The notes beneath the pieces were generated by a model. It was not told the DNA's origin, ran no database searches, and saw only the letters and a list, made by a program, of their open reading frames with translations. Positions 7,093 through 63,931 of a DNA stretch of 64,000 nt are shown piece by piece. The position numbers and the translations under genes were made by a program. How positions within the stretch are numbered: position 1 is the first letter of the stretch; the number at the start of each line of letters is the position of its first letter. The DNA lies in contig CAJBMM010000005.1 of the NCBI GenBank assembly GCA_903954185.1, positions 1,768 to 65,767 on the forward strand. The letters are read 5' to 3'. The DNA is from an uncultured Candidatus Berkelbacteria bacterium. GTDB lineage: Bacteria > Patescibacteriota > UBA1384 > CAJBMM01.

Positions 7093-9954
7093 TTATTTAA
7101 CTTGGGTAGCATACTCAACCACAATAGTTCCGTTTGCAGGTACTGTTAGGGGTGATATTGAGATGGTACTAGTATTAACATCGTTTATTGCTAATTCAGT
7201 ATTGTTACCGCCGCTTACAACTACAATATTTTTGTCTCCATTATATTTAAACAATGTCATACCATCTATCGGCAAGGTATCAGTAACTGAAACACCTGTC
7301 ATTGCACTAGATGATAGATTAGTTACATATATTTTAACTCTAATATATTTACCAGTTGTAAGAGTCAGGCCGTTATACCAATTTCCGTCACTGGTAATTG
7401 AATCTCTATTTGATGGACTACCAGTATTATACTGTTGCACCTGCTTTGAAATCTGCAAATTTGATCCGCTAGATTCGCCACCGCTACAATATGTTGCCCC
7501 TAAATCGATAATTCCCGGTTCCCCACCGCTACCCCCAGCACTAATTTTTAGATTGTTAGAGGAGTTCATAAATCCACTAGGCTTACAAAAATCTACGCCT
7601 TTTGGCCAAGCGCTCGAGTCACCAACGTTAACTAGCGTAGAAGTATAACTAGAAGCCGAAACCCTAACTAACCCACCACCCCCATTACCAGGGACTGCAT
7701 AACAATCCAATGATGTGCTTGGACAATCTGTGCCGTCTGTCCATTTTTGACCAAAACTACTTCCGCCAACGGCGTATAGGTTTGAATTTGACGATAAGTC
7801 AAACACACCAGTCACTTTTACATTTATACTTCCGCCACCGCCCGCTCCTGCTCCAGATGAACCAGAGACACCCGATGCAGATATTGTAGAACTATTCATG
7901 GTTAAATTACCACCAACTGTTAATTTAACAGACCCCCCGCCTGATCCGCCAATTTCTATAGGGTAAGCTGAGCTAGTCGCACCGCCACCACCCATTGCCA
8001 TCGCAACTGCATCAAAAGCAGCTCCATTATACGCACCGCGATACGATGTGCCATTTAAAGTAGCAGTCTGATCCCCTGGACCCGCAATCCCAGGTGCATC
8101 CCCGCCGCTATCGATACCTCCACCATAGCCCAAATATCCTCCACCACCCAAACCGGGCCTACCCATGTTACCAACTGAGTTATTACCCACCCTCACGTCA
8201 GCAATAGATGCGGTATATGATCCGCCACCATAGCCTATCACTCCACCGCCACCACCACCAGAATGCTGAGGTGAAGCATGGCCACTATGTCCGCCGCCGC
8301 CACCATTTCCTTCTGCCCAGTTTGAACCAAATTCAGTCCAATCGTTATGCAATATTGGATAGTAACCAAATAAAGTATCTTTTGCTTTTCCACCAATACC
8401 CGGCACAGAAACTCCATTTAATAGGTAATTCACTCCGCCAGGTAAACCTTTTCCGCTAACATCAACTGAACCACCGCTTGCAATATTTACATTTCCCGAT
8501 GTTGCTAATCTTATACCGCTCTTTATGCCAGTACTGACTGCATCACTATGGTTTTGTAATTTATAGTTTTGCAAGTAGTGAGGTTGATACTCTACAGCGC
8601 CTTCTATAAATAACCCAAAGCTATACCCCGAGCCATCACCACGCACGGTATTAGAAAATGGATTTCCCGCAGTATCTAACGCACCCCCACCTGGCACTCC
8701 GTAATTGAATACAAATTTTTGGGTGGCTGCACCCCTAGCCTGCATAAAGCCACTAAATGTACCATTATCCATCAAATTTACACGTGAGAAAAAGTGATAA
8801 TCTGGAGGTTGAGCTAAACCATAACCACTACCATTCCAAAGATAAGTTTTATCCAAAGTATGGTTAATTACAGCTGCTCTTTGGCCAGTGGTCTCTTGAG
8901 CGTATTCAAATCTACTATATCCAGAGCCAGCAATATCTACTTTCCCGACATTTACTCCACTTTCTTGTGGTGCAAATAACCACGCTACGGGTAAATATCC
9001 ATCATAAATAATTTTAACAGTACCACCTGTTGCATTTTGATCAACCACTCTTATCCATAATGAAGCAATATGATCGGTATCTACGTCTGCCGCACTGATT
9101 CTTATTGGCATATACTGTGCATTACCGGCATAAGTAGTGCCAACATAAAGTGTCTTTTCACCACCATTTAATAATGTGCGATCTCCTCCGCAAGTATCCG
9201 TTGTTGTTCTAAATGAAGAGTGTAATTTTTCACAATTTCCGTTTGCTAAGCCGTTACCATAAACACTCTGTGACCAAGTAACAGCATCAATTGCAGGCCC
9301 ACTATCACTCGCTACGCTTCCAATATCAACGGCAGTAGCATCATTGTAACCGGATGCTCTCAGTAAAAATGCCCTCTTAGTAGCGCCAGCAGTTTGAACT
9401 TGCATGTCGAAGTATAAAAACCCAGTATATCTACTTACAAAGTAGTCACTACGTGAAGCGTATGGCACTGCATTACCACGAGAATCGGTAGGTGCAGAGG
9501 TAACCTTGGCATTATTTTGCACCAACATACTTTTCACAGAGACATCGCCAACTAAAGTTAGGGTAGCACTGTCGTTTACTGTAATTTCTAAATCGGTAGG
9601 AGTAGTTGTGCAAGCTTTGCCCCTATATGGCGAAACAACTGTATTATTAGCAAAAGTGTATTTAAAATTATCTGCAGACCAGCGGTTCATTGGCCACAAA
9701 CAGGTACCGTCTACTGTACCATTATTTATAAGCATGTAGCTAGCCTCGGACCCAACAATATTTATTGAGTTTCCGGCCCAACTTCCGTCTGCTGCAAAAA
9801 CTTGTTTTTGCACATTATTAAATGAGAAGAATGTCAAGCCCACAAGTACAGCAACGATGGTCGTTATTGAAATATAGCGCTGGGCATGTACATGACGTAC
9901 TTTCCACCACCAAAAGCGCAAATCTGCCTTAACCTGATTTATTCGATCGTTCAT
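7093..9954 (-). CDS. large membrane-anchored glycine-rich surface protein (953 aa) with C-terminal DUF11-like 'conserved repeat domain'
   Basis: Single N-terminal TM helix (ITTIVAVLVGLTFFSF). Extended Gly runs (GGGGGHSGHASPQHSGGGGGGVIGYGGGSY; GGGGYLGYGGGIDSGGDAPG). The C-terminal ~90 aa (IRVKIYVTNLSSSAMTGVSVTDTLP...) resemble the DUF11/CARDB-type repeat of cell-surface proteins. Confidence 0.55.
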   Translation of the reverse strand: MNDRINQVKADLRFWWWKVRHVHAQRYISITTIVAVLVGLTFFSFNNVQKQVFAADGSWAGNSINIVGSEASYMLINNGTVDGTCLWPMNRWSADNFKYTFANNTVVSPYRGKACTTTPTDLEITVNDSATLTLVGDVSVKSMLVQNNAKVTSAPTDSRGNAVPYASRSDYFVSRYTGFLYFDMQVQTAGATKRAFLLRASGYNDATAVDIGSVASDSGPAIDAVTWSQSVYGNGLANGNCEKLHSSFRTTTDTCGGDRTLLNGGEKTLYVGTTYAGNAQYMPIRISAADVDTDHIASLWIRVVDQNATGGTVKIIYDGYLPVAWLFAPQESGVNVGKVDIAGSGYSRFEYAQETTGQRAAVINHTLDKTYLWNGSGYGLAQPPDYHFFSRVNLMDNGTFSGFMQARGAATQKFVFNYGVPGGGALDTAGNPFSNTVRGDGSGYSFGLFIEGAVEYQPHYLQNYKLQNHSDAVSTGIKSGIRLATSGNVNIASGGSVDVSGKGLPGGVNYLLNGVSVPGIGGKAKDTLFGYYPILHNDWTEFGSNWAEGNGGGGGHSGHASPQHSGGGGGGVIGYGGGSYTASIADVRVGNNSVGNMGRPGLGGGGYLGYGGGIDSGGDAPGIAGPGDQTATLNGTSYRGAYNGAAFDAVAMAMGGGGATSSAYPIEIGGSGGGSVKLTVGGNLTMNSSTISASGVSGSSGAGAGGGGSINVKVTGVFDLSSNSNLYAVGGSSFGQKWTDGTDCPSTSLDCYAVPGNGGGGLVRVSASSYTSTLVNVGDSSAWPKGVDFCKPSGFMNSSNNLKISAGGSGGEPGIIDLGATYCSGGESSGSNLQISKQVQQYNTGSPSNRDSITSDGNWYNGLTLTTGKYIRVKIYVTNLSSSAMTGVSVTDTLPIDGMTLFKYNGDKNIVVVSGGNNTELAINDVNTSTISISPLTVPANGTIVVEYATQVK

Positions 9955-10159
9955 AACTTACCCTCCTAATATTTACTTACGTATGAGCAAGGTCATCTAT
10001 TGAAATCGACAGGATCTCTCGCCCCGCTAAGCGGGGCATACGAGACGCTTAGCGTTTCGTCGAACTCGAGATGACATTGAACGAGTATCTTACGATACGC
10101 GTTTCATGCTTCATGCTATACAAAATATGCCTTACATCTATTATATATTATCGATTAAG

Positions 10160-10370
10160 TAGTACAAGAGCTGGGGGCATAGAGCATGAAACATTGTGCT
10201 TGATTCCAGCCAGACTAAAGTCTGTGCTCCGAGTTAACCCCGAAGAACACACTTTAGTGTCGTTTGCCAAGCTCCCGTCCTTCACTAAAGTTACGGAGGG
10301 CAAGAAAGCTTGTACTCCGTCGCCGTTTGGAGAACATACTTTAGTGTGGCCACGTTAAAACGTGTTCTAC
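10160..10370. repeat. dispersed repeat family B copy (modules cagacTTTAGTCTGg, cccgtccttcactaaagttacggagggcaag, agcttgtact)
   Basis: Closely related copies at 23991..24100, 26386..26565 and 28600..28705. Confidence 0.7.
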
Positions 10371-10508
10371 AAGAAATTCTTCCACAATTCTCCATTCTGC
10401 ATTCTGCACCCGTGGTGAGCCTGTCGAACACATTCTTCATTTTCCATTCTCTCCCTACTTGATACTTGCTCTTTAAACGGCTTAAATTAATAGTAAGGAG
10501 ATAAATTT

Positions 10509-11891
10509 ATGACAGATAAAATACCTCGTTACAATACTGCTGAAAGAATTGTTGAATCACCAGCACGCGCGCTAGAAAAAACTGTTGATGCAATTGGTGT
10601 AGCCAATAGATACGTAACCTCTAATGGCCCAATAAAAAAAGCCAAAGAATACTGGCAAACTTTAGGGCCTGGGCTAACCACTGGTGCCGCAGACGATGAC
10701 CCGTCGGGAATTGCTACGTATTCACAAACTGGTGCAAAATATGGCTTTCAACTAATTTGGCTAGCAGGCTTTACATATCCTTTAATGGCAATTATTCAAG
10801 AAATGTGCGCTCGAATTGGCATTGTTACAGGGCGCGGTTTAGCATCTACAATTCGCCATCAATTCCCTAAACCCGTACTTTTACTTTGCGCCACTCTACT
10901 TTTTGCCGCTAACTCTTTTAATATTGGCGCCGATTTAGGCGCAATGGCTAAAGCTATTCAATTATTTAAACCAGAGCTTAGCTATAATTTGCTCATAGTA
11001 TTTTTTGCACTTATAAGTTTAAGTTTGCAAATTTTTATTCCTTATAAAATTTATTCAAAATATTTGAAATGGTTAGCACTGGTTTTATTTGCCTATGTAC
11101 TTTCTGCCTTATTAGTCGGCCTAGATTGGCATGCTGTACTTAAGGCTGCCGTAATTCCTTCTCTAAAAGCTGATAAAGATCAAATTATTTTGATTTGCGG
11201 TATTTTAGGCACCACAATATCGCCATATTTATTCTTTTGGCAAACTTCGCAAGAAGTTGAAGAAAAAATAATGGGCGGACAAACCTCTATCAAGCTTCGT
11301 AAAAGCGATGTTACCAACGAGGAAATCAAAAAAATGCGAATTGATATTTGGTCTGGAATGCTGCTATCTAACGCCGCCATGTTCTTTATTATTGCTGCGT
11401 GTGCCGCAACATTATTTAACTTTGGCAATACAAACATTGGCACAGCTGCCGATGCAGCCGAGGCATTAAGACCACTAGCTGGTGACGGAGCTTTCTTGTT
11501 GTTTGCTTTAGGCATTATTGGGGTGGGGCTTTTAGCCATACCCGTGCTGGCTGGCTCTGCTAGTTACGCAATTGCAGAAAGTTTTGGTTGGAAAGAAGGA
11601 TTATTTTACAAGCTTAATGAGGCATATGCATTTTACGGCGTCATTATCATCTCTATGCTATTTGGCCTTGGTATTAACTTTTTTGGACTAGATCCAATAA
11701 AAACGTTAATTTATTCTGCCGTCGCAAACGGTTTGGTTGCCCCAGTTATATTAGTTATAATTGTTTTGATAAGTAGCAATAAAAAAATCATGGGAAGCAG
11801 AGTTAATCACCCAGTTACCACAATAATTGGGTGGCTAATTACCGCTGGCATGATCATCGCAGGATTAGCCACAATATACTCATTCTTTTAA
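10509..11891 (+). CDS. NRAMP-family divalent metal cation transporter (MntH-like)
   Basis: N-terminal GPGLTTGAADDDPSGIATYSQTGAKYGFQLIW resembles the NRAMP signature (GPG...DPGN-IAT...GA.YG..LLW). About 11 predicted TM helices. RBS AAGGAG precedes the ATG. Confidence 0.6.
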   Translation: MTDKIPRYNTAERIVESPARALEKTVDAIGVANRYVTSNGPIKKAKEYWQTLGPGLTTGAADDDPSGIATYSQTGAKYGFQLIWLAGFTYPLMAIIQEMCARIGIVTGRGLASTIRHQFPKPVLLLCATLLFAANSFNIGADLGAMAKAIQLFKPELSYNLLIVFFALISLSLQIFIPYKIYSKYLKWLALVLFAYVLSALLVGLDWHAVLKAAVIPSLKADKDQIILICGILGTTISPYLFFWQTSQEVEEKIMGGQTSIKLRKSDVTNEEIKKMRIDIWSGMLLSNAAMFFIIAACAATLFNFGNTNIGTAADAAEALRPLAGDGAFLLFALGIIGVGLLAIPVLAGSASYAIAESFGWKEGLFYKLNEAYAFYGVIIISMLFGLGINFFGLDPIKTLIYSAVANGLVAPVILVIIVLISSNKKIMGSRVNHPVTTIIGWLITAGMIIAGLATIYSFF

Positions 11892-23889: not shown

Positions 23890-23990
23890 CGAGTGTGTCG
23901 TAGGGGCATAACCCACGTGTCCGCCCAATTCATCAGTAGGAGGTTGTGCGATGAAGTTGTAGAGGTAATTTTTTGAATATATTATTTTTG

Positions 23991-24100
23991 CCAAGCTAAA
24001 GCTTGTTCTACGATTATTTGTAAAACAGACTTTAGTCTGGAACAAACCAAGCTAAAGCTTGTGCTACAAGACACCTTTCGTAGAGCACACTTTAGTGTGG
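23991..24100. repeat. dispersed repeat family B copy (ccaagctaaagcttgtNctac ... acagactttagtctgg ... cacactttagtgtgg)
   Basis: Matches 28600..28705, 26386..26565 and 10160..10370. Confidence 0.7.
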
Positions 24101-24441
24101 CTATTAACAAACTACAACTTGGATCCAGTGAGGTATTTGAGCTTGTGTATTCCAAATTCCAGATCTGCAGAGTATTTATCGTGTCATTCCTGCGAAGGCA
24201 GGAATCCAGTCTATCATAAATTTATTATGTAGATTCCTGCCTTCGCAGGAATGACAATGTGCAAAAATATTTAATTAGCAGTTCTATATTTTGCCACTTC
24301 CGTTACTTCTGCTACTTATTCTCTTTAGTCATTAGTCATTCGGATTTTTTGATTTCTGCCGTGCCGTCCGCTGTGCCATCCGTAGCTTTAGCGTAGGATT
24401 GGTAGCCTTGCGCGAAGGATCGGTAACTTTATTTACTTCTG

Positions 24442-24753
24442 CTATTCTGTCGCTTCTTCTTTCGCAGCGGGTTGGCTTGTTATCATATTTTGTCGCTTTT
24501 GCTGATAACATTCATCACACAAAATATCATTTGGGTTATTTGGTTTAAAACCAACTGTATCTTTTTTGCCACAAGCTTTACAAATTATTTCGGTTTGTTG
24601 CTCAATTTTGCGCTGTTTAATAGCATTGCGACATTCTTTGCATTTAGTTGGATCGTTCGAAAATCCTTTAGAAGCAAAAAACTCTTGCTCACGAGCGGTA
24701 AAAGCAAACTCTTTACCACAATTTTTACAGATTAATGTTCTATCGATAGACAT
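24442..24753 (-). CDS. zinc-ribbon protein with two CxxC...CxxC units (zf-trcl-like)
   Basis: CKNCGKEFAFTAREQEFFASKGFSNDPTKCKECR repeated as CKACGKK...CDECY. Confidence 0.55.
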   Translation of the reverse strand: MSIDRTLICKNCGKEFAFTAREQEFFASKGFSNDPTKCKECRNAIKQRKIEQQTEIICKACGKKDTVGFKPNNPNDILCDECYQQKRQNMITSQPAAKEEATE

Positions 24754-36138: not shown

Positions 36139-39003
36139 ATGAAGCAATCCAAATTTTTAAATCGCATTTTTAACCCACTGGGCATCAAATCCGGTGTAAA
36201 ATTCTTAACCCAAAAAACCAAAAATCCTTGGGTTAGAGTTTTTCGCATTTCCGGAGCAATATTAGCACTGATAATCACCATATTTATTACCCTGGTAGTT
36301 TACTACGCAATTTTCTTACCTAAACCAGGCGAACTGGCGCGCTTCAATTCTGTTGGATCGTCCAAGATATACGATCGCAACGGTATTTTATTAAAAGATA
36401 TTTATAACGAAGAAAAACGCACTGTTGTTGAAAGTCAAAACATCCCCCAGGCAGTTAAAGATGCCACAGTTGCTATAGAAGATAGGGGTTTTTATCAACA
36501 TCACGGCATCTATTTACGATCTATCGCCAGAGCAATTTTTGTGGATATTATACGCGGCAAAAGCTCTCAGGGAGGGTCCACAATTACTCAACAACTTGTT
36601 AGAAATGCGTTCGATGAAATAGGTACCAAAAAAACTATCGCCCGAAAAATTCGCGAGGTTGTAGTAGCCATGCAATTTGAACGCATCTATACAAAAGATC
36701 AAATTTTAACGTTCTATTTAAATGAGATTCCGTATAGTAATAATAATTATGGCATCCAATCTGCATCAAATAGCTACTATAATAAAAATATTTCTGACCT
36801 AGATCCATCAGCCACCGACGATCAAGCCGAAAAAGCCAAAAGGTTTGCTCAAATTGCCACATTAGTTTCTATCCCACAATCACCAACATATTATAACCCA
36901 TACGGAAACCATACTGATAAGCTAAAAATTCGCCGCGATACTGTTTTGCAAAAAATGGTTGAACAAAATTATATCACAAGTGATATGGCTGAAAGTGCAA
37001 AGGGTACTGAAATTGCAGAAGGTGTGTCTAGAACAAAAAGCTCTACTATTGCTCAACATTTTATATTCTACATTCGTGAACAAGTTGTAGAATTGCTAGG
37101 AGGCGGACAAGAGGGAGAGCGAAAACTTGAAAACGGCGGATATAAAATCACAACAACTCTAGACGTTGAAAAACAAAAAGAAGCTGAAAAAATTATTGCT
37201 GACAAAGCATCATCTATCTTTAAAAGCACAGGGGGGAGTAATATTGCCCTTGTATCCACTGATGCTAAAAATGGACAAATATTATCTATGATTGGTTCTG
37301 TAGATTATTTCGAAAAAAACTTTGGCACTGTAAATATTGCCACATCGTCGAGACAACCCGGATCTAGCTTTAAACCTATTGTCTACGCAAGTTTATTTAA
37401 AAAAGCCGGATGGGGCCCAGGAAGCACTTTATTCGATCTTGAAAGCACGTATGATCAATCTAGGCCTAACGACATTTGGCCACGCAACTATTCTGGGGGC
37501 GGCCGCGGACCGGTTACAGTAAGAAACGCACTTGCCCAATCGCTCAATATATCAGCAATTAAAGCTCAAGCAATTTCTGGCACTGATAATGCTGTATCAA
37601 CTGCCAGAGATTTAGGCATAAGCACGCTGCAAGACCCAGATAAATACGGACTTGCAATGGTGCTTGGCGCCGCTGAAGTTAAAATGGTAGATATGGTGGC
37701 AGCATACGGCGTTTTTGCCAACAATGGTACACTGCACCCAACTTCGAGTATTTTAACAATAGAAGACAAAGCTGGCCAGAAAATTTTTGAATGGAAAGAT
37801 GACCCTAAAAAGGTCATTGACCCAGCAATTGCCTACGAAATTACTTCAATTTTATCAGACAACGAAGCCAGAAGTGCCACTTTTGGCAGCCGTTCTGCAT
37901 TATATTTTAGCGATCGAAAAGTTGCTGTTAAAACAGGTACCACCTCTAGCTATCGCGACGCTTGGACCATTGGTTACTCCCCACAGATTGTAACCGCTGT
38001 ATGGGTTGGTAACAATGATAATAAAGAAATGACGCACTCTGGAGCAGGCGCTATGGCGGCAGCTCCCGTATGGCATGACTATATGGCAGAAGCCCATAAA
38101 TCTTTGCCTAAAGAAGATTTTTCCAGGCCAGACAATGTCAAAGACTGCTCAATAGCAAAATATTCAAATAAAAAACCGACCGATAAAACGTCTTCAGAAA
38201 ACATCGTAAGAGATCTTTGTGCCGATTTTCAACTGTCTGATCAAGCTGACGATACCAGCTTTGTCGTTAAATTATACAAACCAGATCAAACTAAACTAGC
38301 TACAGACTCTACTCCTTCGGGGCTAGTGTTTGAAAAAACCTTTTTCAAGATTCGTTCTGAAAGACCAAACGATCCCATTTGGGAAAACCCCGTTCAAAAA
38401 TGGGCGAGGGATAACGGAATTAACCAAGACCAAGTACCCACTGATAAATATGACGAAAACACCTCAAATGATAAGCTTGATATTTCCATCTTATCACCAC
38501 TAAGTGATGCGACGGTTTCTGGAACAATTGGCCTCCAAGCATTAACATCGTCACCTTTTGGTGTAGATTTAATGACCTTTTATCTAGACGATATTCAATT
38601 AGCTCAACCGGAAGCCCCTTGGATTTATAATATAAATACTCTTAATTTTACTAATGGAAAGCATACTTTTAAAGCAACGTCTCACGATGCACAAGGACAA
38701 GAGGCTTCGGCATCGGTTTCTTTCACTATTGCCAATACTACAGGATCGCTTTCTTTATCAAGTATTACAGCTCAGCGCTCTGGCACATCGGTTGTACTAA
38801 CTTGGACATCTAGCGATTTAGCAGATGGAACTGTGAAATATGGCTTAACTAATGCCTACGGAAGCATTCAAGCCGAAGGAAAAGGACAGCTAACGGCTCA
38901 CTCGGTCACCATTGCAGGATTGACAGCAGGCACCACCTATCACTATCAAATTGTCTCCACTAATTCAACTAGCTCAGCTCAATCTGCCGACCTCACGTTT
39001 TAG
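36139..39003 (+). CDS. mrcA: class A penicillin-binding protein (GT51 transglycosylase + transpeptidase) with C-terminal Fn3/Ig-like extension
   Basis: N-terminal TM helix. GT51 motifs EDRGFYQHHGI, GGSTITQQL. Transpeptidase SSFKP (SxxK), SLN, KTGTT. About 250 extra C-terminal residues with beta-sandwich-like repeats (GTTYHYQIVSTN). Confidence 0.9.
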   Translation: MKQSKFLNRIFNPLGIKSGVKFLTQKTKNPWVRVFRISGAILALIITIFITLVVYYAIFLPKPGELARFNSVGSSKIYDRNGILLKDIYNEEKRTVVESQNIPQAVKDATVAIEDRGFYQHHGIYLRSIARAIFVDIIRGKSSQGGSTITQQLVRNAFDEIGTKKTIARKIREVVVAMQFERIYTKDQILTFYLNEIPYSNNNYGIQSASNSYYNKNISDLDPSATDDQAEKAKRFAQIATLVSIPQSPTYYNPYGNHTDKLKIRRDTVLQKMVEQNYITSDMAESAKGTEIAEGVSRTKSSTIAQHFIFYIREQVVELLGGGQEGERKLENGGYKITTTLDVEKQKEAEKIIADKASSIFKSTGGSNIALVSTDAKNGQILSMIGSVDYFEKNFGTVNIATSSRQPGSSFKPIVYASLFKKAGWGPGSTLFDLESTYDQSRPNDIWPRNYSGGGRGPVTVRNALAQSLNISAIKAQAISGTDNAVSTARDLGISTLQDPDKYGLAMVLGAAEVKMVDMVAAYGVFANNGTLHPTSSILTIEDKAGQKIFEWKDDPKKVIDPAIAYEITSILSDNEARSATFGSRSALYFSDRKVAVKTGTTSSYRDAWTIGYSPQIVTAVWVGNNDNKEMTHSGAGAMAAAPVWHDYMAEAHKSLPKEDFSRPDNVKDCSIAKYSNKKPTDKTSSENIVRDLCADFQLSDQADDTSFVVKLYKPDQTKLATDSTPSGLVFEKTFFKIRSERPNDPIWENPVQKWARDNGINQDQVPTDKYDENTSNDKLDISILSPLSDATVSGTIGLQALTSSPFGVDLMTFYLDDIQLAQPEAPWIYNINTLNFTNGKHTFKATSHDAQGQEASASVSFTIANTTGSLSLSSITAQRSGTSVVLTWTSSDLADGTVKYGLTNAYGSIQAEGKGQLTAHSVTIAGLTAGTTYHYQIVSTNSTSSAQSADLTF

Positions 39004-39137
39004 TAAGTAGGGATATTGAGTATATAACACAGAACATAGAGCATAGAACTTATAAAGCAAAAGGCGACACATCACACGATGCATCGCCAATTGCGTTAAG
39101 CCAGAATGCCCAGAATGCTTTGGGCGCTAGCAGGGCA

Positions 39138-39656
39138 TTACAACGCCCCTACGTTCGTCCATGACTGACGTGCTCCTTCGAGGAAGCCGCACAGTCGTTT
39201 ATGCATCACGCCAAGCATCGCCCGATATGTTGCATCCCGAATCGTATACGCTGCAGTCACCGCTTCTATCATCGCGGTATAATGCAACATAAACACCAGG
39301 TTAGAGGATGCGACCTCATGCCCATCGAGCCCGACAAGACAGCACGCACGGCCTACGCACCAATTCGGGTGGAATTTCTGCCAGCCCTCCAAGTTAGCCG
39401 TTATCAGCTTTGCCTGGTCTGTTTGAATTCCCGTCCAAACTCTAGCAGGCTGCTGTCTAATCGAATCACGCAGCTCAGATGGGGCCCACTTGTAATGAAC
39501 ATCAACCATGGTGCCGGCGTGTATTGTGAAGGCATGTAACACCACACAATCACCAACTACAACTCCACGCACAACTACAGACACTCTCGCAAATTCAGCC
39601 AGCTTGTTAGCAATCCGATCAAGGTCTGCTTTTTCCATCGCGCTACATCCTTTCAT
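39138..39656 (-). CDS. hypothetical protein encoded in a GC-elevated island
   Basis: ORF fills the ~52% GC segment 39125..39665, flanked by imperfect inverted repeats (see findings). No family recognised. Confidence 0.3.
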   Translation of the reverse strand: MKGCSAMEKADLDRIANKLAEFARVSVVVRGVVVGDCVVLHAFTIHAGTMVDVHYKWAPSELRDSIRQQPARVWTGIQTDQAKLITANLEGWQKFHPNWCVGRACCLVGLDGHEVASSNLVFMLHYTAMIEAVTAAYTIRDATYRAMLGVMHKRLCGFLEGARQSWTNVGAL

Positions 39657-39823
39657 TGCCTATCGCTTTAGCGAATTGGCTAGAAGTAGAAGAGTTTTAT
39701 GTGAAATCCCTCAATCACCAATCGCATAAGCGAATCGGCTATGAGGAGATGTGAAAGAGCTACTCACGCTTAACGCGCCTAGGCTATATCACAATTTTGA
39801 GTACGTGTCGACAATAATTAATA

Positions 39824-40753
39824 CTAGCGTTCAAGCTCGACAAACAACATTCGCCCAGATGTAGTTTGAAACACGCGAGAAACTATACAATTTACAGTTT
39901 TGCCAACTTGTTTTCTGCCATTTTCCACCACCACCATAGTACCATCTGATAAGTACCCTATACCCTGCCCGTCACCTTTGCCAATTTGAACTACTTCAAT
40001 ATTCAACTTTTCCCCTGGATAAATAAGCGGCTTTAAGGCTATTGCTAACTCATTTATGTTTAAAGTTATCACGCCTTGGATGGTTGCGGAGCGATTAAGT
40101 GTATTATCAGTCGTTAAAACCCTGCCACCACGCTCTTTTGCCAACATAATAAGCTTATTATCCACATCAGTCTTATTTGAATAGTCTTTTTCGATAATTC
40201 GTAATATTATGCGTGGATTTTGCTTCATCGCCTCTAAAGTCTGCATGCCTAAAATTCCTTTTTGTTTTTTAATTGCATCTTTACTATCTGATAATTTATG
40301 CAATTCTTCGATTACAAAAGTTGGAACAGCTAGTGGCATTACAATAAAACCGCTTTTAACTATTTCTAATATGCGCCCATCGATTAACGACGAGGTATCG
40401 CATAATACGTCTGGTAGTAAATTCAGATCTACCGATGTAATATCGCCTCCGCCAAAAGCCCATTTTTGAAAAAAATTGGAAAATCTCTTAGCCTGGGCCA
40501 TAAATAAATCGAGTACTGCTACAACAGAAAATACATTTACAATAACCGGCAACCAACGCCCATATTGTCCAGGTAAGCCAGAGAAGGATTCGGCTAATAG
40601 TTGCCCAACAATTAATCCCAATATCAACCCAACAATGATAAAAAAAACATAAGGGAAAGAAGTTCGCATCAGCTTTCGCGTAACTATTAACGCACCCAAA
40701 GAAATACATAAAATTATTAAGAAAATTAAAGACTGCGTATTATCAAACACCAT
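39824..40753 (-). CDS. yacL: YacL-like membrane protein with PIN and C-terminal TRAM domains
   Basis: N-terminal TM helices, a PIN-like core and a C-terminal TRAM-like beta barrel (GKTVNCIVSRVFQTTSGRMLFVE). Sits immediately downstream of radA as in Bacillus (radA-disA-yacL). Confidence 0.65.
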   Translation of the reverse strand: MVFDNTQSLIFLIILCISLGALIVTRKLMRTSFPYVFFIIVGLILGLIVGQLLAESFSGLPGQYGRWLPVIVNVFSVVAVLDLFMAQAKRFSNFFQKWAFGGGDITSVDLNLLPDVLCDTSSLIDGRILEIVKSGFIVMPLAVPTFVIEELHKLSDSKDAIKKQKGILGMQTLEAMKQNPRIILRIIEKDYSNKTDVDNKLIMLAKERGGRVLTTDNTLNRSATIQGVITLNINELAIALKPLIYPGEKLNIEVVQIGKGDGQGIGYLSDGTMVVVENGRKQVGKTVNCIVSRVFQTTSGRMLFVELER

Positions 40754-61491: not shown

Positions 61492-62598
61492 TTAGCTGGA
61501 TAAATAAATTCTTTTTACAGATTCTGGAATGCGCGTTACCACTTCGTAAGTATTTGTATCTAAAATTTTTGCAACCTCATCAACCGTAATTTCCTGCCTA
61601 CCCTGTTTACCAATTACCACCACTTCTTTGCCTATGTGCAATTTAGAACTTATACGAACTGAGGATAAATCTACGATAGTTTGCCCCATGCATATTCTAC
61701 CAATGACAGGACATTTCCACTCATCGATTAGAACATAACCCTTGTTAGAAAGGCCCCTGTCGTAACCATGAGCGTAACCTATTGGCAAAATACCGATATT
61801 CATATCGGCAGCTGCGGTAAAGGTTTGCATATACCCCACCTTGGCACCTTTTTTAATACGCTTAATTTGTGCAAGCTTTGTTTTTAATGATAACGCAGGC
61901 TCTAACCCTTCGCCATTTGGCTTATAGCCGTAAAGGGCAATTCCAGGACGCACGGCGTCAAAATGATACTCATTTGATTTAAATAGAATACCAGATTTGG
62001 CCATATGGACAGCAGGCACTAAAAACCCATTCCTTTGCAAATCAAACAAACACTTTTGCATAGAGCTAAATTGCTCTGCGACAAAACTCTCATCGTCTTC
62101 ATCGGCAAAGTGAGAATAAATACCATCTACTCGTAAATATGGCAATCGCATAATTTGCGGCACAACTTTATCTACATCTTCGGCTGCAATACCAAGCCTA
62201 CTCATTCCTGTATCAATTTTTATGTGAACCCGAAGTGGTTTCTTTATTTTAGATGCGGCGCTGTTCAGTGCCTCTGCTTGCATTAAATCGTATACCGTGA
62301 TTGTGACTTTTTTATCAATACATATTTCAACGTTCTCAATGTCGGTATAACTTAAATTAAGGATGGATTTTGAAATTCCATTATTACGAAGATCTAACGC
62401 CTCAGCGATGCTAGTCACCGCAAACATATCTATTCCAGATTTTTCTAGTACTTTCGATACTTCGATCAAACCATGTCCATAAGCATTAGATTTAACCACA
62501 CCAATAACCCCAGTGCCTGATAATAATGATTTATTAATAACACCAAGGTTATTTTGTATTGCTAATAAATTAATCTCTGCCCATACGTCACTATTCAT
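61492..62598 (-). CDS. alr: alanine racemase
   Basis: PLP-lysine motif VVKSNAYGHG. TIM-barrel plus C-terminal beta domain. 368 aa. Confidence 0.85.
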   Translation of the reverse strand: MNSDVWAEINLLAIQNNLGVINKSLLSGTGVIGVVKSNAYGHGLIEVSKVLEKSGIDMFAVTSIAEALDLRNNGISKSILNLSYTDIENVEICIDKKVTITVYDLMQAEALNSAASKIKKPLRVHIKIDTGMSRLGIAAEDVDKVVPQIMRLPYLRVDGIYSHFADEDDESFVAEQFSSMQKCLFDLQRNGFLVPAVHMAKSGILFKSNEYHFDAVRPGIALYGYKPNGEGLEPALSLKTKLAQIKRIKKGAKVGYMQTFTAAADMNIGILPIGYAHGYDRGLSNKGYVLIDEWKCPVIGRICMGQTIVDLSSVRISSKLHIGKEVVVIGKQGRQEITVDEVAKILDTNTYEVVTRIPESVKRIYLSS

Positions 62599-63329
62599 AA
62601 TTCTACCTTCATTTTATTTCCTATTATTTCATATCTTTGTAATTTTGCGACTTTATCTAACTCTATAACTAGATTATCATCTAATTTAATTCGCTCAAGC
62701 ATATTAATATCACATTCTTGAATTAAACGTAGTAATTTTATTCCGCTAGCACTAATATTAATGCATATTTCACCCCTATTATGATTTTTGCAGACAATCC
62801 CGCCTAGTCTAATATCAATAAAATTATTAGTTTCCACCAGTTCTTCTCTACCAACTACGCATTTTTGCACTTCTAGTTGATAGCCGCTAGTACTATATAG
62901 TTCTAACTCATATATTGCTAATCGACTATAAGTACCTTGCGCGTTAATTGAGCTCAAACCCTTTATAATCACCTCGTAAATGTTAAGGTTACGCTCTGAA
63001 TCGTGAATAATTTTATCAATAATCTCTAACCATAGAAAAAGTTTTCGCATAACAATTAGGTCTTTGTAGTCATAGTAAGTTTCTGTTTTCGCAACTGTCA
63101 TAATATACAAATCTTTACCTGTTACAAATTCAAAGTTAATAATATTGCCAACTTCTAAATGACCAGATTTACGGCTGGTTGATTTTCTTGAACCTTTTGC
63201 TATAGCAGAAATCTTACCCAATTCACGAGTATAAATGGTCAAAATTCTATCCGCCTCACCATATTCTGTGCGTTTTAAAATTATTCCAGGAGTTGCGATG
63301 TTTTGCATAGCCATAACATACCAAACCAA
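62595..63329 (-). CDS. recO: DNA repair protein RecO
   Basis: N-terminal OB fold GIILKRTEYGEADRILTIYTRELGKISAIAKGSRKS and C-terminal Cys/His-containing domain. 4-nt overlap with alr. Confidence 0.8.
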   Translation of the reverse strand: MVWYVMAMQNIATPGIILKRTEYGEADRILTIYTRELGKISAIAKGSRKSTSRKSGHLEVGNIINFEFVTGKDLYIMTVAKTETYYDYKDLIVMRKLFLWLEIIDKIIHDSERNLNIYEVIIKGLSSINAQGTYSRLAIYELELYSTSGYQLEVQKCVVGREELVETNNFIDIRLGGIVCKNHNRGEICINISASGIKLLRLIQECDINMLERIKLDDNLVIELDKVAKLQRYEIIGNKMKVEL

Positions 63330-63520: not shown

Positions 63521-63931
63521 CTATGAAACCGCCAATACTGGCTTGCTGCCTATCGCTTTTTCAACGTTGGCAATCTCAGCAAGCACTGCCCGGGCTATTG
63601 TAACCAAGGCATCATCTCGATAATCCGCAAGCAGCCTGATTGCATCAACCGCCTGCGTATACACTTCGGCGTCATCAATCGGTCGCTGCTTGTTGAACCG
63701 ATCGAAATAATGCAACCGGCGCGCCAATGCCCGCAAGACGTATTGCGCCTTTATATAGTCCGAGCTACACCCAAATTTCGTCGGTAGGTTGTTGACAGAA
63801 TCAATCAATCCCGCCGTCCCCATTCGGTTAACCTCACATGCATGAGGTATCGTCGCTACTTCGCAAATTGTCAACGCATCTCCCCTTCCATGTTTTTTCA
63901 GGTACTTAGGGTAGTGGGCCCTAAAAAACAA
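63521..63931 (-). CDS. hypothetical protein in a third GC-elevated island
   Basis: ORF sits in the ~50% GC segment from ~63385 to the window end. Left flank carries the gcgcttaagc motif shared with the other GC-rich islands. Confidence 0.3.
   Translation of the reverse strand: MFFRAHYPKYLKKHGRGDALTICEVATIPHACEVNRMGTAGLIDSVNNLPTKFGCSSDYIKAQYVLRALARRLHYFDRFNKQRPIDDAEVYTQAVDAIRLLADYRDDALVTIARAVLAEIANVEKAIGSKPVLAVS

Follow-up and report, generated by a model that had tools for sequence, protein, structure and literature searches.

A probable horizontally acquired single-gene islet between PBP1A and yacL in a Patescibacteria genome

The DNA examined here, a 64-kb window (the whole stretch analyzed; GC content, 38.9%) of a single contig of ~66 kb, carries a GC-rich segment between mrcA, which encodes the class A penicillin-binding protein (PBP) PBP1A, and yacL. 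This segment (the island, or island 2 where it has to be told from another) holds one open reading frame (ORF), ORF172, an orphan of 172 amino acids (aa) and 519 nucleotides (nt) placed by the ORF listing at positions 39138 to 39656 on the minus strand. We consider it likely that ORF172 is a horizontally acquired single-gene orphan islet (166 to 172 aa), situated in the tail-to-tail junction of the recJ-radA-yacL operon and PBP1A. Close relatives that conserve the syntenic site lack the segment, whose GC content at third codon positions (GC3) deviates from that of the host; no donor or homologue elsewhere was found among 5.8 billion protein clusters, 1.84 billion representatives, phages, plasmids, and IMG/VR. 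An earlier note on this sequence had described a small cargo-carrying transposable or integrative element. Its observation of a family-less ORF of 172 aa and ~52% GC between mrcA and yacL was confirmed, and the idea of a lineage-specific foreign insertion held up, whereas the transposon or integrative architecture did not: the transposon-like look arose because a terminator stem and a leader palindrome were taken for ends. Alone, the islet adds one further singleton gene to a genome of the candidate phyla radiation (CPR) and matters little; the main value of the analysis is negative, in that a transposon-like architecture has been explained away.

A lineage-specific gene in a variable junction

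ORF172 departs clearly in composition from the DNA around it. Its GC content is 0.51 to 0.52 (0.389 in the window), with values of 0.59, 0.44, and 0.51 at the first, second, and third codon positions. When all 52 listed ORFs were compared, four, ORF172 among them, were GC3 outliers (>0.42); the GC3 of ORF172 was 0.52, against 0.24 to 0.38 in the 48 nonoutlier ORFs of the window. ORF172 is uninterrupted and extends across the GC-rich segment, and an ORF of at least 172 codons arose in only 9 of 2,000 shuffles of the spacer (P ~ 0.005). Base usage was heterogeneous with a period of 3 (chi-square P = 0.008), with G fractions of 0.39 and 0.21 at the first and second codon positions. This bias, toward a G-rich first and a G-poor second position, runs in the universal direction. 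A Shine-Dalgarno-like AAAGGA, read from the sequence at 39648 to 39653 (minus strand), lies within the proximal copy of a direct repeat described below. Because the ATG at 39638 to 39636 follows this motif at a distance of 9 nt, that codon is the likelier start, which would yield a protein of 166 aa; both the 172-aa and the 166-aa starts are in use in public gene calls. The ORF length, the period-3 signal, the Shine-Dalgarno-like motif, and a downstream terminator together favor a protein-coding gene. The product looks cytoplasmic, given that no signal peptide or membrane segment was seen when the translation was read by eye.

The spacer that contains ORF172 is 820 nt long (39004 to 39823) and lies between the convergent stop codons of PBP1A (36139 to 39003, plus strand; Transgly and Transpeptidase domains and a Big_7/fn3-like C terminus) and yacL (39824 to 40753, minus strand; identified by a domain match as PIN/TRAM YacL-like). 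The same arrangement was present on 14 contigs from independent samples and different assemblers or pipelines. Therefore, the order PBP1A/ORF172/yacL is real and not an assembly artefact. Three contigs (L001, L010, and L011) were 99.85 to 100% identical to the window, and the island was free of substitutions in all three.

We next consider the junction in more distant relatives, in which the C termini of both flanking proteins are conserved. In the nearest relative (YacL/PBP1A, 92 to 93%; 11,154-nt contig of P0002/P0131, IMG 3300059473), the junction measures 315 nt, has no called gene, and could not accommodate the 519-nt ORF; the PBP1A of this relative is known from one contig, and its junction was judged from gene calls. 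PBP1A and yacL overlap by 25 nt in a relative whose YacL is 80% identical (L004) and by 11 nt in those at 78% (L005/L006), and a relative at 62% (L013) has an empty spacer of 42 nt. In the comparison of the mrcA-yacL spacer that the earlier note had proposed, the junction is therefore empty in the 80%, 78%, and 62% relatives. Other relatives carry different genes at this position: seven ordinary accessory genes in one at 65% (L009), a GC-rich 204-aa orphan with a transglutaminase-like gene in one at 63% (L012), and two family-less genes in one at 60% (L014). None of this cargo in L009, L012, or L014 was similar to ORF172. A further contig (L015) was uninformative owing to a scaffold gap. Read from these sequences, the spacer segment is a lineage-specific insertion, and the tail-to-tail junction of yacL and PBP1A is a permissive, recurrently variable landing site in this lineage. 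Without ORF172, the spacer would be 301 nt long, nearly the length seen in the nearest relative (315 nt). This similarity hints that the leader and terminator of ORF172 may be native and that only ~505 nt came in.

Searches for relatives of the protein were uniformly negative. ORF172 matched no family in Pfam, NCBIfam, PHROG, or PADLOC, and a sequence search of the PDB gave no credible match (one marginal, E = 0.049). A word-indexed search of the 5.8 billion clusters, which by way of cluster representatives covers ~15 billion proteins, returned only ORF172's own cluster. Exhaustive phmmer comparison with the 1.84 billion representatives likewise gave no credible homologue beyond that cluster; two weak matches were to internally repetitive proteins whose scores were summed over several short stretches, and they were treated as artefacts. 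ORF172 found no match by tblastn in phages or plasmids or by search of IMG/VR, nor did the whole spacer by blastn against plasmids and phages. The alternative ORFs on the plus strand of the island also belonged to no family found.

Several observations weigh against horizontal acquisition of a working gene. The phage, plasmid, and IMG/VR collections held no match to a donor, and ORF172 is without any homologue with which conservation or purifying selection could be compared. The sole variant known is one nonsynonymous change, L120M. A single-sequence AlphaFold model reached a pLDDT of 40 and was uninformative. The contents of W, C, and H are 3.0, 3.0, and 4.2%, which by our own estimate look high and resemble randomly translated sequence more than they do typical proteins. 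Given this random-like composition, ORF172 could be decaying or never-functional foreign DNA.

Horizontal transfer of islands and of single genes into Patescibacteria genomes has been documented (PMC12455944). The islet resembles the ORFan islets of that work in being lineage specific, unlike its host in composition, and family-less, in occupying a variable intergenic spot, and in bringing no mobility gene of its own (PMC12455944). It differs from them in being GC-richer than its host, in its duplicated palindromic leader, and in that no donor was identified. AT-rich sequence is the more usual finding in recently acquired bacterial DNA and in ORFans. As for the route of entry, incoming DNA may have been joined by illegitimate or homology-poor recombination rather than by transposition or site-specific integration, since the end signatures of the latter processes were not found.

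Terminator, leader repeats, and the supposed transposon ends

A strong intrinsic terminator for a minus-strand transcript lies at 39053 to 39088 and consists of the hairpin GGCGATGCATC-GTGT-GATGTGTCGCC followed by TTTTGCTTTA. The hairpin (39088 to 39063), of 11 pairs around a 4-nt loop, stands 50 nt downstream of the ORF172 stop codon. It was the single hit of a terminator scan of 38900 to 39950, and the same hairpin appeared in both the minimum free energy (MFE) and the centroid folds of 39004 to 39140 on the minus strand (z = −3.7). A simple consensus scan of 38900 to 39950 found no σ70-like promoter and no second terminator. Judging from this arrangement, ORF172 is probably cotranscribed with yacL; most of its transcription would come from polymerase reading through out of yacL, and the yacL operon would now end at the terminator (39088 to 39053).

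Between the yacL stop codon and ORF172 lies a leader of 167 nt, which holds both copies of a direct repeat. The repeat pairs 39659 to 39690 with 39718 to 39749 at a period of 59 nt and can be extended to 44 nt at 73% identity (proximal copy, 39647 to 39690; distal copy, 39706 to 39749; both on the minus strand). Its score of 14.5 exceeded those of all 60 dinucleotide-shuffled versions of this kilobase (mean, 10.1; maximum, 12.5), and the two-copy repeat is real, beyond chance. Each copy contains a 23-nt imperfect palindrome: GCCAATTCGC-TAAA-GCGATAGGC (39658 to 39680) in the proximal copy and GCCGATTCGC-TTAT-GCGATTGGT (39717 to 39739) in the distal one. The proximal palindrome is degenerate and alone folds weakly (−11.1 kcal/mol; z = −1.0). 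The distal palindrome lies inside a longer hairpin, CCTCA...TGAGG, with an RNA folding energy of −20.9 kcal/mol (z = −3.9), and only 1 of 200 shuffles was as stable. The leader palindrome was not found in the loci of relatives or in IMG/VR. A candidate third copy, downstream of the ORF, was rejected: the best gapped direct alignment (39081 to 39115 versus 39653 to 39685; ~25/34) was matched by 60 of 300 shuffles.

The two copies may have arisen by local tandem duplication. They could act as a regulatory element, either as an mRNA hairpin that affects stability or translation or as paired operators recognized by a dimeric DNA-binding protein. As in the operator pairs and 5′-leader hairpins of small autoregulated operons, two imperfect palindromes stand ~5.6 helical turns apart, upstream of and overlapping the ribosome-binding region. 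Unlike such systems, the islet showed no detectable promoter, no recognizable DNA-binding domain in its ORF, and no further copies of the site.

These features account for what had looked like the ends of a mobile element. The earlier note had quoted three repeat strings, all of which are present; their coordinates were off by 2 to 3 nt for the right end and the second copy. The left string, catcGCCAATTGCGTTAAGCc, is at 39082 to 39102 (core, 39086 to 39101); the right string, atcGCTTTAGCGAATTGGCta, is at 39662 to 39682 (given as 39660 to 39680); and the second copy, atcgcataagcgaatcggcta, is at 39721 to 39741 (given as 39718 to 39738). An imperfect inverted match of 12/16 does exist between 39086 to 39101 and 39665 to 39680, but only at chance level. 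Its ungapped score was 6.0 (match, +1; mismatch, −1.5), compared to a mean best score of 12.1 in the shuffles, and even the best inverted pair observed (11.0) was reached by 40 of the 60 shuffles. A repeat search listed 18 inverted pairs of about this quality in the kilobase. Allowing gaps between the left and right flanks gave alignments matched by 112 of 300 shuffles in the inverted orientation and by 60 of 300 in the direct one. The left arm, GCCAATTGCGTTAAGC (39086 to 39101, no strand assigned), is therefore a chance match and not a functional end; it overlaps the terminator stem by 3 nt, and the right arm is half of the palindrome in the 5′ leader of ORF172. The extra direct copy of the right repeat belongs to a genuine direct repeat, but as a copy of the leader palindrome, not as a transposon end.

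Other marks of mobility that had been proposed as checks were likewise missing. With up to three mismatches, the 16-mer occurred in the 64 kb only as the two adjacent leader copies. No target-site duplication was found outside the repeats: the sequence is ...gatgcatc outside the left arm and tagaagta outside the right arm, or tatgagga outside the second copy. The sole direct match of flanking 10-mers (39013/39794; 9/10) compares to ~15 per kb expected by chance (our own calculation). A test for an integrative element found no integrase or recombinase among the neighbors, no tRNA gene within 8 kb, and a direct flank alignment at the chance level given above (60/300). The proposed kinship with the 19.7-kb island, here called island 1, found no support; blastn at word size 7 gave a best E value of 0.32 in a tiny search space, and the proteins gave an E value of 1.0.

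Weighing of alternative explanations

A small cargo-carrying transposable element, nonautonomous and either like a miniature inverted-repeat transposable element (MITE) or derived from an insertion sequence (IS), with terminal inverted repeats at 39086 to 39101 and 39665 to 39680 and an extra right end at 39724 to 39739, is now very improbable, and this reading is largely refuted. It draws on the size of the islet (0.6 to 0.7 kb), on a superficial inverted match whose arms lie near the edges of the island as marked by GC content, on the absence of the segment from close relatives, and on an HTH_38 (IS30-like) ORF 17 kb away (21312 to 22367). However, the 12/16 match falls below shuffle level, and the gapped comparison is at chance as well; the arms, which coincide with 3 nt of the terminator stem and half of the leader palindrome, have no other copy in the 64 kb or in the fetched loci of relatives, and no target-site duplication is visible. 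The islet thus lacks the signs by which MITEs and IS-derived elements are known, as neither multiple copies nor a transposase was found; Pfam, NCBIfam, and PHROG recognize no transposase domain in ORF172, and no copy of the island 2 motifs lies near the HTH_38 ORF or elsewhere in the window. MITEs are normally without an ORF. A spacer from which the arm-to-arm 595 bp had been excised would measure ~225 nt rather than the 315 nt of the nearest relative, a weak point since other indels are possible. A site-specific-recombination gene cassette, integron-like or otherwise based on att sites, is a decidedly improbable explanation. The recombination sites would be the leader palindromes or a perfect 9-bp inverted pair, GCGTTAAGC/GCTTAACGC (39092 to 39100 and 39765 to 39773), which matches GTTRRRY/RYYYAAC and closes the MFE fold. 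Like an integron cassette, the islet is a single orphan gene of atypical GC content with no promoter of its own detected, adjoined by imperfect palindromes and with GTTRRRY/RYYYAAC-like heptamers; GC-rich orphans with flanking direct repeats of 60 to 90 nt at island 1 and in L012 also speak for this reading. An integron cassette consists of an ORF and one attC site downstream, whereas the palindromes here are duplicated, 59 nt apart, and on one side of ORF172 (upstream) instead of flanking it. Perfect 9-mer inverted pairs are expected by chance about twice per kb and GTTRRRY about once per kb per strand (our own calculation), so that the heptamers are at chance frequency. No cassette array is present, and no tyrosine or serine recombinase was found among the murC-argS neighbors or six further window ORFs, which together were the part of the window scanned.

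In AT-rich genomes, a GC-rich island classically points to noncoding RNA (ncRNA), and the island here could be a large structured ncRNA gene with ORF172 incidental. Consistent with this, the minus strand of 39060 to 39800 folds with a z of −4.4 to −4.8 (plus strand, −1.85), ORF172 has no homologue and an amino acid composition that is partly random-like (our own estimate), and the other GC island of the window, island 1, folds more strongly still (z = −6.5). The terminator hairpin and the pair of leader palindromes nevertheless supply most of the excess stability. Taken by itself, the ORF segment had a z of −2.0, within the spread of 28 random 741-nt windows of the same sequence (mean, −1.5; standard deviation, 1.8; 4/28 at ≤−4). 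Rfam gave no match at gathering score in the window except tRNAs and, at E values up to 10 over 38950 to 39900, one spurious microRNA model (E = 1.2). With ORF length, period-3 statistics, and the Shine-Dalgarno-like motif all favoring coding, we regard an ncRNA as improbable. It is rather unlikely, finally, that the segment is a decaying relic, i.e., a piece of foreign DNA (left over, for instance, from a larger insertion) whose ORF172 has lost its function in this host or never had one here. The lack of a homologue in ~15 billion proteins, the low-confidence structure prediction, and the partly random-like composition (again our own estimate) fit such a relic, and the gene-less 315-nt spacer of the nearest relative could be a further-decayed version of it. 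Against it stand an unbroken ORF that spans the GC-rich segment (P ~ 0.005), the presence of a Shine-Dalgarno-like motif and a terminator, and identity in every sampled population but for one substitution. Streamlined CPR genomes are also generally thought to purge useless DNA quickly, which speaks against a relic.

Other GC-rich orphans and the surrounding genes

The window contains three family-less GC-rich ORFs (19757 to 20398, 39138 to 39656, and 63521 to 63931), and a fourth GC-rich orphan, of 204 aa and GC3 0.75, occupies the same yacL/PBP1A junction in the 63% relative. Long direct repeats (60 to 90 nt) flank two of these four. We think it unlikely that the islet belongs to an unrecognized class of cassettes, each with one GC-rich ORF, for which permissive intergenic sites in this lineage are repeated points of entry. 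If such a class existed, its members might move by capture through local repeat or hairpin elements, with no transposase, or they might be structured RNAs with incidental ORFs. The wider pattern of unrelated GC-rich orphans would merit a survey, as it bears on how streamlined, episymbiotic bacteria gain new genes and hold on to them.

Island 1 (19250 to 20640) carries a family-less ORF of 213 aa (19757 to 20398, minus strand; GC, 0.63; GC3, 0.71). It has a direct repeat of 62 nt at 74% (19484 to 19545 and 20530 to 20591), an inverted repeat of 23 nt at 91% (19306 to 19328 and 20601 to 20623), and a perfect 12-nt inverted repeat, GTCATTCCTGCG/CGCAGGAATGAC, at 19250 and 20628. These boundary repeats are genuine, and island 2 has nothing comparable. 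Short motifs of the GTCATTCCTGCG/CGCAGGAATGAC type recur at 20600 to 20760 and 19249 to 19261, along with three copies of GCTCGCAATGAC(A/G), and may represent a REP-like family of intergenic repeats that is present also in L012. Next to island 1 lies the HTH_38 ORF already mentioned (21312 to 22367, plus strand; 351 aa), in which no rve/DDE domain was found at an E value of 0.001; we take HTH_38 to be typical of the N termini of IS30-family transposases. The third orphan (63521 to 63931, minus strand; 136 aa; GC, 0.50; GC3, 0.53; no Pfam family) follows an ORF at 62595 to 63329 and stands at the window edge with its upstream flank incomplete. Kinship between it and ORF172 was considered and dropped, as no alignment was found. 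The 204-aa orphan of L012 (locus segment 7915 to 9200; GC, 0.58 for the orphan and 0.44 for the locus; GC3, 0.75) is flanked by direct repeats of ~90 nt with ~80% identity that contain a GTCATTCC...GGAATCC hairpin. The stem of this hairpin shows compensatory changes between the copies, CCGGA/TCCGG versus CCCGC/GCGGG.

The genes around the spacer (murC, murB, ftsQ, recJ, radA, yacL, PBP1A, tyrS, and argS) all belong, from murC to argS, to housekeeping Pfam families, and yacL is the last gene of the minus-strand run murC-murB-ftsQ-recJ-radA-yacL. There are no tRNA genes within 8 kb of the spacer. The nearest named homologues of YacL and PBP1A come from “Patescibacteria group bacterium” and, more distantly, from Berkelbacteria, which places the host in the Patescibacteria/CPR. 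Positions 1 to 377 of contig L011 could not be aligned to the window where the interior of yacL is expected (window 40454 onward), while the rest of that contig is 99.85% identical; the mismatch may reflect a strain-level rearrangement or a chimeric contig end. Downstream of ORF172, the spacer also holds microtandem repeats at 39022 to 39049 and 39101 to 39118, namely, four units of ATAGAAC (76% matches) and two of CCAGAATGC (perfect). Two of the folding control windows, 9887 to 10627 and 23966 to 24706, folded unusually strongly on both strands (z = −4.1 to −6.05), which suggests DNA-level palindromes or repeats at these positions.

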